Below are positions 4,578 through 27,771 of a stretch of 64,000 nt of DNA, in pieces (within the stretch, counting starts at the first letter, position 1; each line of letters begins with the position of its first letter). The notes beneath the pieces were generated by a model, which was not told where the DNA came from, did not search any database, and worked only from the letters and a program-made list of their open reading frames with translations. Source of the DNA: Thermoproteota archaeon (lineage in GTDB: Archaea; Thermoproteota; Thermoprotei_A; EX4484-217-1); contig JAPDJU010000005.1 of the NCBI GenBank assembly GCA_029258915.1, positions 201,797 through 265,796 on the forward strand, written 5' to 3'. The translations under genes were made by a program, and so were the position numbers.

Positions 4578-4772
4578 ATGGATCCCTTTAAAACCATGAT
4601 AATAATGTATGTTTTCACAGTAGTTTTCGTTTTTTACAATGTGTTTAGATACCTAGATAAGATAACCGTTTTGAACATAGCATTATTTGTAGTTTTGATA
4701 GTGTTTCCGTTTCTAGCTATCTTAACTTATTATAGGAATATTGTAAAAGGTGGTGATATACGTGGAAGGTAA
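4578..4772 (+). CDS. cedA2: small two-TM membrane protein, CedA2-like
   Basis: 64 aa with two hydrophobic helices. It overlaps the ATPase gene start by 23 nt. Confidence 0.5.
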   Translation: MDPFKTMIIMYVFTVVFVFYNVFRYLDKITVLNIALFVVLIVFPFLAILTYYRNIVKGGDIRGR

Positions 4773-6636
4773 TAAAGTAATACCTTATATCCTTATAGTT
4801 TCTGGATTCATGATTTTCATTTTTACTATGAATTCTGCAGCTTTAATGAATAATTTATACATGGTACCAGTATTAATATTAGCTCTAGTGTGTTTGGTTA
4901 TTATAATGTCTAATAAGGATGCTTTAAAGAAGTTTATTAGAAGATCCAAGGAATATTATTTAAAAAACATAGGAGAATTCCATGTTGAAGACAATTTTGT
5001 GGTTGTTGCAGGTAAAAATATGTATAAAGGTGCTATCGTATATGTCGTTGATGAAATACCGTATACTTTCGCTGATGTCTCACATAGCTTCCTATTACAA
5101 CAGTTAAGGGCATTCACCAATTTCATAGTAGCATCAGAAGATAATATCTCAGTACTTCTTATAAAGAAGAGCAGTGATGCAAGGAAATATATTAAAAACC
5201 TAGAACGCACTATAACAAACTATAGAGTATTACTTTCAGCAGATCCAGCTAATCCATATGTTCAGAGAAAACTACAGAAACTTGAAGCAATATTTAACAG
5301 AGTAAGCAAAGGAGAAACACCTATTAACGTAAAGATATACTTAATAGCCTTTGCTTACGAAGCCAATATGAGAAAACTTTATGAAAAATTAAAGAGAAAA
5401 GGCGAAGCACTAGTATCATCTTTCAAAGCAAGCATGGGGTTAGAGATTAAAAAAGCAACAGAGGATGAAGTGTTAGAGGCCATAACCCATGGGCTATTAG
5501 GTAAAAGCAAGCCTTTAACAGTCCTAGAGTCCGATATAAGCTTCTTAACACCTATAGGTTACGTTAAAAGACCTAAAGTTTCTGGCGAAGGTATATTCTT
5601 AGGTGAAGACATAGACTATGGGACGCTAGTCTTCTATGACTTTGAAAAATATTTAACTAGGCACATGGTTATAGTAGGTCCCACAGGAAGAGGTAAAACA
5701 ACACTCCTTTACACTATTGCAAAAAGAGTTATGGAACAATATGATATACCGATATGGATTTTGGATTTAAGAGGAGAGTTTGAAGTATTAAATAAAGCCA
5801 TGGGAATAACCATAGTTGACCCTGAAAAATCACCTGTCAATCTATTGTTACCATGGTTTACCAGCCCTAAACTACGTGCTAAGCAGGTAGTAGATTTAAT
5901 TAAAGCATTAGCGGAACTAGAGCCCACTGAAGAATATATTCTTTTCATGGCAATTTTAAAGTCTTATGAACGAGCTCAACATCCTGATTTAGAAACTTTG
6001 ATAAATGTAATTAAGGAGGAATATTTAAACAGAGAATTGCAGCTGAAGTCATATACCTTGCTTACTAAGATCGAACAGTTAAACAGTAAGGTTTTCCTGC
6101 AAAGTAACTTTAATGATATGATGATTATAGTGAAGAAACCAATAATATTTGCTCTTTATAAATTACCTGAAGAATATAGAAAGATATATGCATTAGCCAT
6201 TTTACAAATATTAACGAATTATATGCTTACTCTAACGCCGACAAATAAGTTAAGGCATTTAGTAATAATAGATGAAGCATGGAGGCTAACAGATACTAAA
6301 GCTGGATCCAGGATCATTAGAAGCTTGGTTAAAGAAGGAAGAGGATATGGTTTAGCTGTTGCTTTAGCTTCTCAGGACATATCGGATTTCCCAAAAGACA
6401 TACTTGACAATGCCGGGACAGTAATAGTTTTCGGCTCTAATAGCAAAGACTATGTAGAAACAGTAGCTAAATACATGAAGCTTAATGATGATGAAAAAGA
6501 GAGAATGACATGGCTAAAAATAGGTGAAGCTTTAATAAGGATAACTGGTGATCCGAGACCTGTTTGGGTTAAGATAGTTCCAGAAAACATGGAGTACCAA
6601 GAAAAACCTCATGTAAGCAAAATCAGTAAAACATAA
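4750..6636 (+). CDS. cedB: membrane-anchored VirB4/HerA-FtsK superfamily ATPase, CedB-like
   Basis: 628 aa with N-terminal TM helices. Walker A is VGPTGRGKTT and Walker B is VIIDEAWRL. DEAW is the VirB4/TrbE-type signature. GTG start overlapping the upstream gene. Confidence 0.65.
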   Translation: MVIYVEGNKVIPYILIVSGFMIFIFTMNSAALMNNLYMVPVLILALVCLVIIMSNKDALKKFIRRSKEYYLKNIGEFHVEDNFVVVAGKNMYKGAIVYVVDEIPYTFADVSHSFLLQQLRAFTNFIVASEDNISVLLIKKSSDARKYIKNLERTITNYRVLLSADPANPYVQRKLQKLEAIFNRVSKGETPINVKIYLIAFAYEANMRKLYEKLKRKGEALVSSFKASMGLEIKKATEDEVLEAITHGLLGKSKPLTVLESDISFLTPIGYVKRPKVSGEGIFLGEDIDYGTLVFYDFEKYLTRHMVIVGPTGRGKTTLLYTIAKRVMEQYDIPIWILDLRGEFEVLNKAMGITIVDPEKSPVNLLLPWFTSPKLRAKQVVDLIKALAELEPTEEYILFMAILKSYERAQHPDLETLINVIKEEYLNRELQLKSYTLLTKIEQLNSKVFLQSNFNDMMIIVKKPIIFALYKLPEEYRKIYALAILQILTNYMLTLTPTNKLRHLVIIDEAWRLTDTKAGSRIIRSLVKEGRGYGLAVALASQDISDFPKDILDNAGTVIVFGSNSKDYVETVAKYMKLNDDEKERMTWLKIGEALIRITGDPRPVWVKIVPENMEYQEKPHVSKISKT

Positions 6637-6654
6637 TAAAAACACAGTATTATT

Positions 6655-6735
6655 TTAAGAAATGATCCGTGCAATCTAACCCCGCAAGGGTAGAGATGAG
6701 CACGGAGGTTGCCCCTAGGCAACACCCATTACCTT
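6655..6735 (+). ncRNA. GC-rich structured element immediately 3' of cedB (candidate small RNA or terminator structure)
   Basis: GC-rich island in an AT-rich background. It contains nested hairpins (CCGUGC...GCACGG enclosing CCC-GCAA-GGG, and GUUGCC-CCUA-GGCAAC). It shares the ordered motifs AAUGAUCC, AGAUGAG and GUUGCCC with 26684-26740. Confidence 0.3.
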
Positions 6736-6761
6736 CTAATTTCTCTCTACCAAAAATCTAA

Positions 6762-7304
6762 GTGGTGATCTTTTTGCATGAAAGAAGCAATATTATCCCT
6801 GTTCATGCAGAATCTTACTTCATAGTAGAGCGTAATGGTAAATTCAACCAAATACTAAAATATCAATACTACGACCCTGAAGAGTACTATTACACGCTCA
6901 TTCATAGACCTAGAGAATATTATAAAGAAATAAAGAGATTATACTCTGTTATGAATGAAGTGCTTAAGGAAGAAAGAGTATTAATCAATGAAAAACAAGT
7001 AAAGCTAAACGTAAAACTAGTAAACATAGACTTTGCTGGATACGTAGATCAGCCTTACATCCTATATTATATAAAGTTTAAAGGGCCTTTAAGAAAAGGT
7101 GTTAATATATTTGAAGACTTCTATGAGGAAACAGTAGCGGAGTACGATTATGAAGTATATTGGTTCTTTCCCGAACGTACAAAAATATTAGAAGTATATG
7201 TTGACGGCGATTTTGACTTAGTAAATAGTAATAAGTTGTTTATTTGGGCTCGAAAAGGCGATAAAATATCGGGATATGAGAAAATAATCTTTATGCTTTC
7301 TTAA
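6762..7304 (+). CDS. hypothetical protein (Tyr/Glu-rich)
   Basis: 180-aa ORF with no recognisable motif. Confidence 0.4.
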   Translation: MVIFLHERSNIIPVHAESYFIVERNGKFNQILKYQYYDPEEYYYTLIHRPREYYKEIKRLYSVMNEVLKEERVLINEKQVKLNVKLVNIDFAGYVDQPYILYYIKFKGPLRKGVNIFEDFYEETVAEYDYEVYWFFPERTKILEVYVDGDFDLVNSNKLFIWARKGDKISGYEKIIFMLS

Positions 7305-23830: not shown

Positions 23831-23858
23831 GGGGATTGGCAAAGTAATCCTCATCCCC
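23831..23858. terminator. palindromic hairpin between convergent genes
   Basis: GGGGAUUGGCAAAGUAAUCCUCAUCCCC can form GGAUU/AAUCC and GGGGAU/AUCCCC stems. It lies at the 3' ends of 23366-23806(+) and 23851-24237(-). Confidence 0.3.
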
Positions 23859-24237
23859 GATAAGAACGATCCACATAACCTCTAATAATCTTCTTCGCCT
23901 TTAAGCTAGTAGCTATATAGCGAAAAGCTGCTTCAGGATCAGTATGTTCACCGCAGGAATAAACATCAACTGTTGCAAAGCTAAACTCAGGCCACGTATG
24001 TACAGCAATATGGCTTTCTAAAACAATAGCAACTATGCTTACACCATCACCTATTTTCCACGATCTCACATCTAGCAGCGTCATATTGCCTATCTTCGCT
24101 GCTTCAATAACTATGTTTTTTAGTACTCTTTTATTCCTTAAAAGCTTAGTATCGCAATCGTAAAGTTCACCATAAACGTGTTTACCAATAACCTTCGGTA
24201 TAGCAACCTCTCTTTGCAGAGCTACGAGTTCCGTCAT
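23851..24237 (-). CDS. AdoMetDC-fold pyruvoyl decarboxylase (S-adenosylmethionine decarboxylase or its crenarchaeal arginine-decarboxylase paralog)
   Basis: 128 aa. [13 protein letters not shown] (proenzyme cleavage Ser) and [10 protein letters not shown] are present. Confidence 0.8.
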
Positions 24238-24357
24238 CGCCCCCTAACACCCCCCTCTTGGGGGATTACCCCCCCATAGCATTTAAAGTTTACCCTTAAA
24301 GAAATGTAAGAATAGAATATAAACAATGTAAAAAGCAGTGTAGAAAATGGGATTCAT

Positions 24358-24834
24358 ATGGTTATCCCTGGGTTCCGTATTGTGAAGTACATAAGGAACA
24401 TTATGTTTAATGAGCAAGTACAACCAGCAGGAATAGACTTAACAGTATCTAAAGTGTTTAAATTTAAGTCTAAAGGGTACTTAGGAGTTAGGAAAAGAGA
24501 TCTCTCAGAAGTATATGAGGTTCCTAAGAGAAATGGTAAGTGGTTTCTAGCTAAAGGAGTGTATAAAGTATTGATTAACGAAATTATCCATGTACCTAAA
24601 GATGCTGTAGGCATTTGTTTTCCACGATCCTCTCTTTTAAGAATGGGAGTTGATGTACGATGTGCCCTTTGGGATCCAGGATATTATGGTAGAAGCGAAA
24701 TACTACTTGTTGTACATAATGATGAAGGTGTAGTTATTGAAGAAAATTCTAGAATTGCACAAATAGTTTTCATAAGGTTAACTGAAAAGCCGCATAAACT
24801 ATATTCAGGGAGATTTAGAGGAGAAAACATATGA
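24358..24834 (+). CDS. dCTP deaminase / dUTPase family protein
   Basis: 158 aa with the motifs GIDL, PRSSLLRMG and WDPGYYG. Confidence 0.75.
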   Translation: MVIPGFRIVKYIRNIMFNEQVQPAGIDLTVSKVFKFKSKGYLGVRKRDLSEVYEVPKRNGKWFLAKGVYKVLINEIIHVPKDAVGICFPRSSLLRMGVDVRCALWDPGYYGRSEILLVVHNDEGVVIEENSRIAQIVFIRLTEKPHKLYSGRFRGENI

Positions 24835-25793
24835 TAGAAATTAATGATAAAGCTATAGGGAATGTAAGTAAACACATTAAATATATTGAAATACCCTTAG
24901 ATAGCTTTACAAACCCCGAATATTACCCATCAACAGGCGATGTTGAAGATGTTATAAGGTATTTTCTCTTTATGGTAGCTATAGATCATAGAACAAGTTA
25001 TAGAGGAGTAAGCTATGAAGAATGGGTTAATGGAAAATTATATCATGGTGCAGATCTTCTTTACAGACTCGGCATGATGAAATACAATGAAGACCCAGAT
25101 TTTTTCTCACCTAGACATATGGCCAAAATTAAATTAAAAGATGTTATATCATGGCTAAACTATGGTAAGGCAAAAATATGGGATATTAATATAAGGGCCA
25201 TGCTACTTCGAGATCTAGGCCTTAAACTTCTAAAACTATACCATGGGAAGGCATGTAAGCTTATAGTTGATAGTAAGGGTTATTTAAAGAGAAAAGGAAA
25301 AGGTTTGATTGAGACATTAAAGGTGTTTAAAGCTTATGAAGACCCTGTTGAAAAGAAAGCATATTTACTAGTAAAGTTTCTTGAAAGAAGAGGAATAATT
25401 CGTATAAAGGACTTAGCTAATGTAGAAATTCCCGTAGACAATCATCTCACACGAATAGCTTTTAGACTAAACATAGTAACGCTAAATTCGAAATTATGGA
25501 AAGCTATAAGCACAGGTAAGCATTTAACGAGAGAAGAAGACGTAATTATAAGGTTAACTGTAAGAAAAGCATATAAAGAAATTTCTAGAAGAGCAGGCGT
25601 TTTACCGCTATACCTAGATGATTTTTTATGGATGCTAGGCAGAAGATGCTGTACAAAACCTTTGCCTAAGTGCAATAACTGTAAGGTACTAAAGTATAGT
25701 GAATGTCCTCTTAAAAATGCTTGCAAAGGTTATAGAGATCCCAATTATGCTAAATTAACAGAACACATGTACATAAGAACATGGTACTATTGA
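24831..25793 (+). CDS. divergent HhH-GPD/EndoIII-like DNA glycosylase candidate with C-terminal 4-Cys (Fe-S cluster loop-like) motif
   Basis: 320 aa. IPVDNHLTRIAFRLNIV resembles the EndoIII PVDTHVxRVxxRLG segment. The C-terminal Cys pattern is C-x6-C-x2-C-x7-C. Its start overlaps the dUTPase-like stop. Confidence 0.4.
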   Translation: MIEINDKAIGNVSKHIKYIEIPLDSFTNPEYYPSTGDVEDVIRYFLFMVAIDHRTSYRGVSYEEWVNGKLYHGADLLYRLGMMKYNEDPDFFSPRHMAKIKLKDVISWLNYGKAKIWDINIRAMLLRDLGLKLLKLYHGKACKLIVDSKGYLKRKGKGLIETLKVFKAYEDPVEKKAYLLVKFLERRGIIRIKDLANVEIPVDNHLTRIAFRLNIVTLNSKLWKAISTGKHLTREEDVIIRLTVRKAYKEISRRAGVLPLYLDDFLWMLGRRCCTKPLPKCNNCKVLKYSECPLKNACKGYRDPNYAKLTEHMYIRTWYY

Positions 25794-26126: not shown

Positions 26127-26423
26127 ATGTATAGTAAAAAAGCATATTTTGACTACTTTTATAAAATTTTAAAATCTTTAAAAAGCAAGGAGATAAGTAA
26201 CGAAGAAGAAAAGAAAGTAACACTATATTTTATCAGAAATATTTCTGTTGGAGAAATATTGGCTTTAAGAGAATTAGAGATCTTAGGTGTTAAAAATCCC
26301 TCAAAAGTTATCAGGACACTTATTCTGAAAGGTGTTTTAGAAAAAGGTGAGGGATGTTACAATTTAGCTAAGGATATAAGAGAAGAACTATTTATGTTAA
26401 AACGTAAGGGCAGAGACATATAG
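26127..26423 (+). CDS. small winged-helix-like hypothetical protein
   Basis: 98-aa ORF. Confidence 0.4.
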   Translation: MYSKKAYFDYFYKILKSLKSKEISNEEEKKVTLYFIRNISVGEILALRELEILGVKNPSKVIRTLILKGVLEKGEGCYNLAKDIREELFMLKRKGRDI

Positions 26424-26489
26424 TGTTGTATTTGTAAGTTTTAAATGTTTTTGTTTCATTAGATGGAGTTGCATTGAAGCTTTAGAAAA

Positions 26490-26800
26490 GATGGATGTGC
26501 GAAGCCCCGTCCCCGCGAAAGCCCCCTAATGAAACCGAAGGGAGGAAGGTTTGCCATTACAAAAGCTACCAAATATTCCGAAAGTAGCAGCAAACTATAA
26601 CGGCTAATTAAAGTATAGGCTGTTACAAATTTTACGGTAAATTTAAACATTTCAGAATACTTCTAAACCATGAAACATTTCTTAATGATCCCCATTGCGG
26701 TGAGGAGCTTCAGATGAGAGGGCTGTGGCGTTGCCCTCGACAGAGCCCCATGAGGTGCGGGTGAAGCTAATGAACTCACACCAAGGGCTAACCCCCTCAC
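26490..26800 (+). ncRNA. about 300-bp non-coding island with GC-rich structured ends; candidate stable RNA gene(s) of unresolved identity
   Basis: It lies between convergent genes and has no convincing ORF. The GC-rich segments at 26495-26560 and 26684-26795 are unusual in a roughly 34% GC genome. It has multiple hairpins (UAAUG-AAACC[GAAGGGAGGAA]GGUUU..CAUUA, GGUUUGC...GCAAACU, GAGGGC...GCCCUC). The strand is uncertain. Confidence 0.35.
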
Positions 26801-26820
26801 AAAATTAAAAATAACTAAAA

Positions 26821-27771
26821 TTACCTAAAAGTACCGTGAGGGGAGAAACGCTTGTACTCTATTCCTTCTAAGTACTTAACATCACCATAACTTATCTCCC
26901 AAACTTTTCCCTTGCTATCTTCTATAACTAGTTTGCCTCTTGGTGAGATGTCTAGCACTGTGCCTTCAACTACTAAATGGTTTATTTTTACAGCTATTTT
27001 CCTACCTATTGTTAAGTTCATTCTTCTCCATAAATTAATAATATCTTCCGCACTTGTTTTCTCTAGTATCCTAGCTACTTCTAAGGCTATGGCTTTAAGT
27101 ATTACATTTCTCGGCATATTGAAGCCTAAAATTTCAGATAGCGATATAACTCCTTGTAGCCCTGAAAATTTCATTTTATTATTAACATTTAATCCTATAC
27201 CTATAATGCTAAGAACTTTATCATCTTTAAACATGTTCTCTATAAGTATTCCTCCTATTTTCTTTGCTAAAAACATTATGTCATTAGGCCATTTAAGTTT
27301 AAAATCTATTAACAGTAGTTTCTTAAGTGCATTTACTACAGCAACACCTACGGCTAGACTTAGAATCTCTAATAATTCTTTTCTTTCTACTTGCCATAGT
27401 ATTGATAACCATATGCCTCCTGGAGGTGATAACCATATCCTTCCGGCTCTACCTCTTCCCTTGGTCTGTACTTCTGAAAAAATTATTGCCCTACTATAGT
27501 TGTCTACGACTTTTTTTACATAGCTCATTGTTGAATCTATAGAGTAAAAGTACTTGATGAGCTGGAAACCTATACTTTTTAGAAGCGTATCATTCTCTAA
27601 TAATTTCATATTATCCGAAAAGTTTCCGCAAACACTGTCATTTTTAAACGTAATGGATTCAAGAGTTAATAAGTAATTTATAAGTTCATGAGGTAAACTG
27701 CTTCGTTGAATGCATTTATTATTGTAAAGATTTTTAATTGCACTTAACGTACTTGAACTTGAATTTGTCAA
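26821..27771 (-). CDS. birA: biotin--protein ligase BirA
   Basis: 316 aa with the biotin-ligase signature TKGRGRAGRIWLSPPGGIWLS. It is divergent from accC. Confidence 0.8.
   Translation of the reverse strand: MTNSSSSTLSAIKNLYNNKCIQRSSLPHELINYLLTLESITFKNDSVCGNFSDNMKLLENDTLLKSIGFQLIKYFYSIDSTMSYVKKVVDNYSRAIIFSEVQTKGRGRAGRIWLSPPGGIWLSILWQVERKELLEILSLAVGVAVVNALKKLLLIDFKLKWPNDIMFLAKKIGGILIENMFKDDKVLSIIGIGLNVNNKMKFSGLQGVISLSEILGFNMPRNVILKAIALEVARILEKTSAEDIINLWRRMNLTIGRKIAVKINHLVVEGTVLDISPRGKLVIEDSKGKVWEISYGDVKYLEGIEYKRFSPHGTFR

Follow-up and report, generated by a model that had tools for sequence, protein, structure and literature searches.

The window, by which we mean the whole 64,000-nucleotide stretch of archaeal DNA that was analysed, carries two convergent genes, one encoding a PBP2-like protein of 98 aa and the other, birA, encoding a biotin-protein ligase. 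The spacer between their stop codons has 397 bp and contains two G+C-rich blocks separated by an A+T-rich stretch (Table 1). Measured over 60 nt the G+C content reaches 0.62 at 26490-26549 and 0.63 at 26700-26759, the mean of the window being 0.351, and the open reading frames listed in the spacer are all short and implausible. A first-pass annotation had rightly drawn attention to these two blocks, to the A+T-rich stretch between them, to the lack of a credible reading frame and to the convergent neighbours. It had also described multiple stable hairpins in the island, placed at 26490-26800, and had proposed that it may represent one or two novel or divergent non-coding RNAs.

Table 1. Features of the birA locus in the window. 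Assignments to mini elements, scaffold, helices and guide are predictions.
Feature	Position	Strand	Basis
98-aa PBP2-like gene	26127-26423	+	ORF list; Pfam PF22511; alignment with L003, L007 and L008
Insertion A, probable mini element without genes, from a second and related family	26411-26603	+	absent in relatives; homology to L069/L070
A+T-rich left end of A	26411-26470	+	80% identity over 30 nt to L069 1617-1646
Right end of A, degenerate omega-RNA-like scaffold (predicted); first G+C-rich block	26489-26603	+	homology to L069
Relic of the ancestral gene-end overlap, GGCTAATTAAAGTATAGGC	26602-26620	.	identical 19 nt in L003; ends in AGGC
Insertion B, probable miniature, without genes, of an IS607-family insertion sequence	26621-26851	+	homology to full-length elements and to L027
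Left end of B, starting TGTT	26621-26684	+	left-end alignment; nhmmer left-end profile, E 5.6e-11 (the profile includes the window copy itself)
Internal tnpB piece ATGATCCCCATTGCGGTGAG and junction	26685-26709	+	90% identity over 20 nt to L017 6306-6325 and L038
Right-end core of B, predicted omega RNA scaffold and relic of the last 30 tnpB codons	26710-26851	+	
Helix 1	26718-26723/26733-26738	+	RNAalifold
Helix 2	26744-26748/26785-26789	+	RNAalifold
Helix 3	26754-26762/26774-26782	+	RNAalifold
Helix 4	26792-26802/26834-26845	+	RNAalifold
Right-end tail AAACGC	26846-26851	+	
Predicted guide portion TTGTACTCTATTCCTTCTAA	26852-26871	+	flank that immediately follows the right end; antisense to the 3' end of birA
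birA, biotin-protein ligase	26821-27771	-	ORF list; PF03099; sequence comparison

A stable RNA of the host, whether a divergent SRP RNA, a divergent RNase P RNA or another one, would agree with G+C-rich islands in the A+T-rich genome of a likely thermophile. It would also agree with the conserved helices of the 3' block that are described below, and with the minimum-energy fold of the island, in which 26501-26518 in the first block pairs with 26698-26713 at the start of the second through an imperfect complementarity of 15 bp. Nevertheless no Rfam family was found at gathering thresholds in the entire 64 kb, and even at E<=10 the region 26300-26950 returned only noise, with neither SRP RNA nor RNase P RNA, so that these two candidate identities must be given up. 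The fold of the whole island is not significantly better than those of dinucleotide shuffles (z -1.25 on the + strand and -1.8 on the - strand), and each block alone folds about as well as its shuffles on both strands (z -0.8 to +1.0), which does not bear out the multiple stable hairpins. The conserved helices of the 3' block emerge only through comparison with relatives. ARAGORN reported no tRNA gene in the 64-kb window, and a search of the window for internal repeats found none. Readings as C/D-box, H/ACA, tRNA or split-tRNA genes were dropped by eye, the box motifs, the ACA spacing and the T-arm being absent.

Two other compositional features of the window were recorded. The first is a G+C-rich intergenic stretch at 6655-6745 (+), between the ORFs 4750-6636 and 6762-7304, whose fold has -31.6 kcal/mol against -17.6 +- 3.0 kcal/mol for its shuffles (z -4.7) and which has no match in Rfam; it is a better candidate than the island for a genuine small structured RNA. 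The second consists of runs of C and G, CCCCCTAACACCCCCCTCTTGGGGGATTACCCCCCC, at 24235-24297 between the divergent genes 23851-24237 (-) and 24358-24834 (+), and the spacer around it has an equal length in the relative L003.

A first genome scan with BirA peptides returned no relative. BirA homologues place the organism of the window among uncultured Thermoprotei or Desulfurococcales-like archaea, and the birA neighbourhoods of relatives were compared as loci L003-L012. In L003-L006 and L010, whose BirA is about 90% identical, the stops of birA and of the PBP2-like gene overlap by at least 11 nt and the spacer is absent; the same arrangement is found in L008, L009, L011 and L012 (BirA 57-61%). 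The only relative with a spacer is L007 (BirA 85%), where it has 165 bp. Since the two genes overlap at their stops in the relatives, the spacer of the window is inserted DNA. The closest relatives are 94-96% identical to the window at the nucleotide level in accC and in the 320-aa gene at 24831-25793, and yet they are empty at this locus. Conservation in relatives, which had been put forward as a way to check for a host RNA, is thus lacking, as the DNA of the island is absent at the birA locus of the closest ones.

When the window was aligned with L003, two gaps in the latter were found to bracket the 19-nt stretch GGCTAATTAAAGTATAGGC, which in the relatives is the overlapped end of both genes and in L003 is contiguous with both gene bodies. 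The two gaps indicate that the window carries two insertions, A at approximately 26411-26603 and B at 26621-26851, with one G+C-rich block in each. What had been described as a single island is therefore a pair of separate insertions with a relic of the ancestral overlap between them, and its two blocks, each in an insertion of its own, are not the ends of one RNA. The inserted DNA spans 26411-26851 and so extends beyond the boundaries first given to the island. Nor is it purely intergenic, because the inserts supply the last codons of both flanking genes. The 98-aa protein takes its last four codons and its stop from insertion A (..KRKG-RDI* in place of the ..KRKGLIKV* of the relatives). In BirA the last nine residues and the stop are read from the right end of B (..EYK-RFSPHGTFR* against ..EYRPIL*), and the C-terminus of the window protein is ..EYKRFSPHGTFR, replacing ..EYRPIL. 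Insertions of the IS607 type can in this way un-overlap convergent genes and rewrite their C-terminal codons.

The island is hence not one transcript-shaped unit, since its A+T-rich middle holds the gene-end relic, and the 15-bp complementarity between the blocks is treated as a chance event on account of the separate insertions and the non-significant fold. Moreover, each block is homologous to the ends of mobile elements at unrelated loci, as described in the following paragraphs. Against this evidence we attach hardly any probability to a host non-coding RNA gene at this locus.

For insertion B, a motif common to the window and L007, TCAGATGNGNNNGNTNTGGCGTT, was used as the query of a scan with one genome per species. 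It gave 47 matches, about as many as chance alone would produce. Desulfurococcales-type MAGs account for four of them, namely L017 (Staphylothermus sp.), L021 and L027 (a Desulfurococcaceae MAG) and L038 (a Thermoprotei MAG), and the alignment of each of these with B extends over about 170 nt and breaks off sharply at a shared end, ..GAAACGC. In L017, L021 and L038 the aligned region is the 3' end of an ORF of 429-452 aa, which is preceded by an ORF of 206 aa. The shorter product of L017 (4679-5299) is a TnpA that matches NF033518 (IS607 transposase) with 186 bits against a cut-off of 110, and it contains the Pfam domains Resolvase (3e-20) and HTH_17, as in a serine recombinase with an N-terminal HTH. 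The longer product is a TnpB that matches TIGR01766 with 45 bits against a cut-off of 32, and its match to PF07282 is weak. The same layout, with tnpA upstream of tnpB, is present in L021 and in three further full-length copies that share the B-type ends (L064, L066 and L068). B is homologous to six full-length copies, these three together with L017, L021 and L038, and to one mini copy, L027. The TnpB family of L017 has 727 homologues, some of which are annotated as IS605 OrfB or as ISC1913-like. Proteins of its clade have the Pfam domain PF27234 ('MJ0013') and fall below the cut-off of PF07282, the usual zinc-ribbon model of TnpB. Among cultured relatives the family is present in, for example, Thermogladius calderae and Aeropyrum pernix.

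Homology to the full-length elements shows that B is composed of a left end, a 20-nt internal piece of tnpB and the last 142 nt, in other words of the left end joined to the final ~165 nt. Its left 65 nt are homologous to full-length left ends, with further left ends read in L066 and L068, and the TATA-like ATTTAAAC at 26641-26648 occupies the position of the tnpA promoter of the full-length copies. These left 65 nt include a TATA-like ATTTAAAT, a motif that in the full-length elements stands some 30 nt before the start codon of tnpA. The internal piece is kept in both mini copies (the window and L027), and in the full-length copies about 115 nt of coding sequence separate it from the right-end core. 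This core, which holds most of the second G+C-rich block (26684-26795), has 83-89% identity over 142 nt to the full-length elements. With tblastn, residues 413-442 of the L017 TnpB matched 26707-26796 with 83% identity (E 5e-11); this relic of 30 codons is the only match of the protein in the 64-kb window, and no tnpA or tnpB was found elsewhere within it. The window contains one copy each of A and B. The same gene-less architecture as that of B is present in L027 at an unrelated locus of another MAG. BLAST against phages and plasmids gave only chance A+T-rich matches, and scans of viral contigs with four patterns gave nothing or chance matches only.

The junctions of B have the dinucleotide GC on both sides (26619-26620 and 26850-26851), that is, the same core dinucleotide at both junctions and no target-site duplication. 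The motif AGGC, in which the relic of the gene overlap ends, precedes every B-type left end and was present in all six left flanks read (window, L007, L017, L027, L066 and L068). The copies with both junctions read (window, L007, L017, L027 and L066/L068) start as ..AG(GC)/TGTT.. and end as ..AAAC(GC)/, where the brackets enclose the core and the slash marks the boundary. Terminal inverted repeats were not seen in B by eye, and the sole mirrored motif is internal: ACGGTA at 26634-26639 is inverted with respect to TACCGT at 26832-26837, the two being located 13 and 14 nt inside the ends of B. Other B-type copies have ACGATA/TACCGT in place of ACGGTA/TACCGT, and such pairs could be candidate binding sites for TnpA. 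The IS607 elements described in the literature have a serine TnpA, a core dinucleotide and scarless excision, with no duplication or inverted repeats (PMC10690162), and this published mechanism fits the junctions seen at B.

The right end of B was folded by RNAalifold together with its homologues, and the alignment of eight sequences yielded four helices. Across the eight copies 93.7% of the cells in the 32 pairs of these helices are paired. Compensatory changes affect 13 of the 32 pairs, against 6.2+-1.5 in shuffles, with none of 500 shuffles reaching 13, and slide controls gave 0-3 compensatory pairs. Model R2, a covariance model trained on the other seven copies with the window left out, recognised window B with 146.1 bits (E 1.2e-35). 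Conservation among the eight copies halts right after ..GAAACGC and the sequences downstream are unrelated; in L017 the TnpB ORF ends 23 nt before this boundary. As G-U and A-C cells occur at about the same frequency in the helices, the assignment of the transcribed strand rests on the orientation of tnpB and not on the pairs. Part of the conservation of the right end must also be ascribed to protein constraint, since the same segment is coding in the full-length copies. Among proteins of 62-100% identity (P0121-P0240; L017 6444-6563) the last ~40 residues of TnpB (SDG..STEPHEVRVKLMNPHQGLTPLTELK) are near-invariant, which fits a double constraint by the protein and by the RNA helices.

Because this right end is the 3' end of an IS607 element and overlaps the end of tnpB, it can be read as the omega RNA scaffold of a transposon, retained in a gene-less mini element. 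Its location, its covarying structure and the sharp stop of conservation all match the anatomy of TnpB omega RNAs, by analogy with the systems already characterised. The proposal of a stable RNA has therefore survived in part: with four covarying helices and 146 bits from a model of seven homologues that excluded the window, the 3' block at 26710-26851 is a conserved structured RNA-like module, and the part that fell is its assignment to a stable-RNA gene of the host. The flank that follows the right end is predicted to act as the guide, on the model of the TnpB literature (PMC10690162, PMC10055086), and AGGC is the candidate TAM suggested by the six left flanks.

The first G+C-rich block was likewise taken for a host RNA, and its homology places it instead in a second mini element as a decayed copy of a related module. 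Insertion A is absent from L003, L007, L008 and L010-L012. It has GG at both junctions (26409-26410 and 26602-26603), each boundary being uncertain by 1-2 nt owing to a G run, and a TATA-like TTTTAAAT at 26441-26448 in its left end. A peptide word search with the reading frame of A gave no match, and a degenerate pattern for A in metagenomes gave four chance matches. A full HMMER search with its 40-aa frame led to a spurious ORF of 69 aa (P0242) and, through it, to the contigs L069 and L070 from another metagenome. These carry an ORF-less element with flanks unrelated to those of A and with GG at both junctions, and the homology to A begins with a GGGC that both have immediately ahead of the left end and continues to ..AACGG. 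The right end of A (26489-26603) and L069 1769-1885 share 86% identity over 117 nt (E 7e-35). The right end of L069 in turn matches model R2 over its whole length with 27 bits (E 7e-5 over 132 kb and 1e-6 on the locus). It retains helices 1, 2 and 4 as well as the ..GAACGG tail but lacks helix 3. Window A gives the same alignment to R2 as L069 does, with helix 3 absent and helix 4 broken, and scores only 4.2 bits because of the broken helix 4.

It may be argued that A is unrelated filler or captured DNA and that only B is a mini insertion sequence. In agreement with this, the profile HMMs of the B-type ends (nhmmer, left and right) and covariance model R1 did not detect A, R2 gives it the low score just mentioned, local alignments of A with B stay at the level of shuffles, and a full-length parent of A was not found by shallow searches with the peptide words, the metagenome pattern and the viral scans. 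On the other hand a second copy with both ends conserved exists in another organism between unrelated flanks (L069/L070), and this copy matches the right-end model of B at full length. Moreover, the global alignment of A with B has a z of 3.4-4.4 against about 2 for the reverse-complement control. The family link between A and B consists of this global alignment and the L069 bridge, and we find it improbable that A is filler or captured DNA. To judge from its sequence, A is a decayed member of a sister mini-element family with a layout like that of B, and the window copy looks inert. An origin of A from IS607 is suggested by one bridging sequence, L069. Its core dinucleotide is probably GG. 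A point against this picture is that, with a 2-bp core at the junctions of A, the target should have one G less than is seen in the empty sites of the relatives.

The AGGC site downstream of birA appears to have been occupied in more than one lineage. The insert of L007 (3900-4094) lies at the same AGGC site as window B, and L007 has an insert at the position of B only, with similar ends; it is degenerate and scores 28.7 bits with R2. The two inserts are 54% identical, against 76-81% identity at third codon positions of the flanks. Identities at third codon positions give the tree ((window, L003, L010), L007), (L008, L011), and L003 and L010, which are nearer to the window than L007 is, are empty at the AGGC site. 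This can be explained either by two family members that inserted independently at the same AGGC site or by one old insertion that was scarlessly excised in the lineage of L003 and L010 and decayed in another. In the Logan assembly of the same sample the contigs (L002 and L001) break off at 26494 and resume at 26781, within the conserved right ends of the two insertions. Such breaks would be expected of A/B sequence that is multi-copy or polymorphic in the sample, and are suggestive only.

Two diverged members at one AGGC site, with the nearer relatives empty, might also be explained if B were a free-standing guide-RNA gene maintained by the host or by the transposon population, with its guide antisense to the 3' end of birA. 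B would then act in trans with TnpB from other copies and police the AGGC site; alternatively it would regulate birA with a nuclease-dead TnpB-like partner. We give this idea very little credence.

A more serious objection is that both insertions are dead transposon debris, B being a tnpB pseudogene fragment with TnpA-binding ends, and that neither block gives rise to a functional RNA. The 3' block does translate to the C-terminus of TnpB, the 64-kb window has no TnpA or TnpB, A is visibly decayed, the site of B is occupied in L007 by a degenerate copy (28.7 bits), and the folds of single sequences are no better than those of shuffles. Compensatory changes are nevertheless seen in all four helices among the eight copies, which indicates selection on pairing and not on the protein alone. 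Two independent gene-less copies (the window and L027) have kept the scaffold and the promoter-bearing left end although the coding sequence was lost, and window B still obtains 146 bits from a model that excludes it. We think the debris reading rather unlikely.

The explanation that we consider likely is that the spacer consists of two tandem gene-less mini derivatives of the IS607 family, on the same strand, inserted where birA and the 98-aa gene overlapped at their 3' ends. The compositional anomaly is real and its kind is ordinary: two tandem IS607-derived mini elements, the scaffold of one intact and that of the other degraded. By analogy with characterised IS607 and IS605 elements, the serine-recombinase TnpA would move the element as a double-stranded circle. 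The crossover would take place at the 2-bp core, GC for B, beside AGGC, with no inverted repeats and no duplication. Excision would be scarless and would join ..GTATAGGC directly to TTGTACTC.. at the emptied site. The right end would be transcribed as an omega RNA with a 3' extension into the flank from 26852 onward, in the mini elements presumably from the tnpA promoter of the left end. The flank-derived guide would then direct TnpB to cut the emptied site of AGGC plus flank, as IS607 TnpB is known to cut the regenerated TAM and target (PMC10690162), and the cut would allow the element to be restored by recombination. As B has no genes, it would need both TnpA and TnpB in trans.

The full-length relatives of B resemble the IS607 elements already known (CboIStron/IS607, PMC10690162, and the ISC1913-like elements of Sulfolobales and Desulfurococcales) in encoding an NF033518 TnpA together with a TnpB. 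Elements of the B type also lack terminal inverted repeats and target duplication, carry the same dinucleotide at their two junctions and are preceded, 5' of the left end, by a short conserved motif, and their right end overlaps the 3' end of tnpB. Unlike those elements the window copies are gene-less. The B type apparently has a GC core with an AGGC flank, whereas the Clostridium element has GG and TGGG (PMC10690162), and in contrast to the IS607 elements studied so far the L017-type TnpB belongs to a divergent archaeal clade (PF27234, with PF07282 below cut-off).

The predicted B-type scaffold is comparable to the TnpB omega RNA (reRNA): it occupies the 3' end of tnpB and extends as far as the boundary of the transposon, its structure is conserved and covarying, and conservation stops where the guide would begin. 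However, it matches no family of Rfam 15, and in the mini elements it would use the left-end tnpA promoter and need TnpB in trans. Among IS605 elements some are known that have no genes and yet encode an omega RNA (Meers et al., PMC10055086). Like those PATE-like IS200/IS605 elements, B would be non-autonomous, with a left end and a scaffold-bearing right end, and dependent on the TnpA and TnpB of other copies (PMC10055086). It differs in its parent, which is an IS607 element with a serine recombinase acting on double-stranded DNA, whereas IS605 has a Y1 transposase and single-stranded hairpin ends, and in its host, which is an archaeon and probably a hyperthermophile. A TnpB characterised in a thermophilic archaeon, SisTnpB1 of Sulfolobus islandicus, is of the IS200/IS605 type with the A+T-rich TAM TTTAA (PMC10640517). 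It shares with the B type an archaeal thermophilic TnpB, an omega RNA at the 3' end of tnpB and a TAM given by the left-end flank. It belongs to another family with another TAM, and no sequence relationship between it and the B type was found.

These results remove a false lead, as the island is not the missing gene for SRP RNA or RNase P RNA and does not represent a new RNA of the host. They document, at the strength set out above, gene-less guide-RNA-bearing derivatives of the IS607 type in an uncultured Thermoprotei archaeon that is probably a hyperthermophile; gene-less guide-RNA elements have so far been described mainly for bacterial IS605. For an archaeal clade of TnpB with 727 homologues they lead to specific predictions, namely a four-helix scaffold of ~165 nt, a 3' boundary at ..GAAACGC and AGGC as candidate TAM. 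The predicted scaffold, boundary and TAM can be tested for thermostable genome editors.
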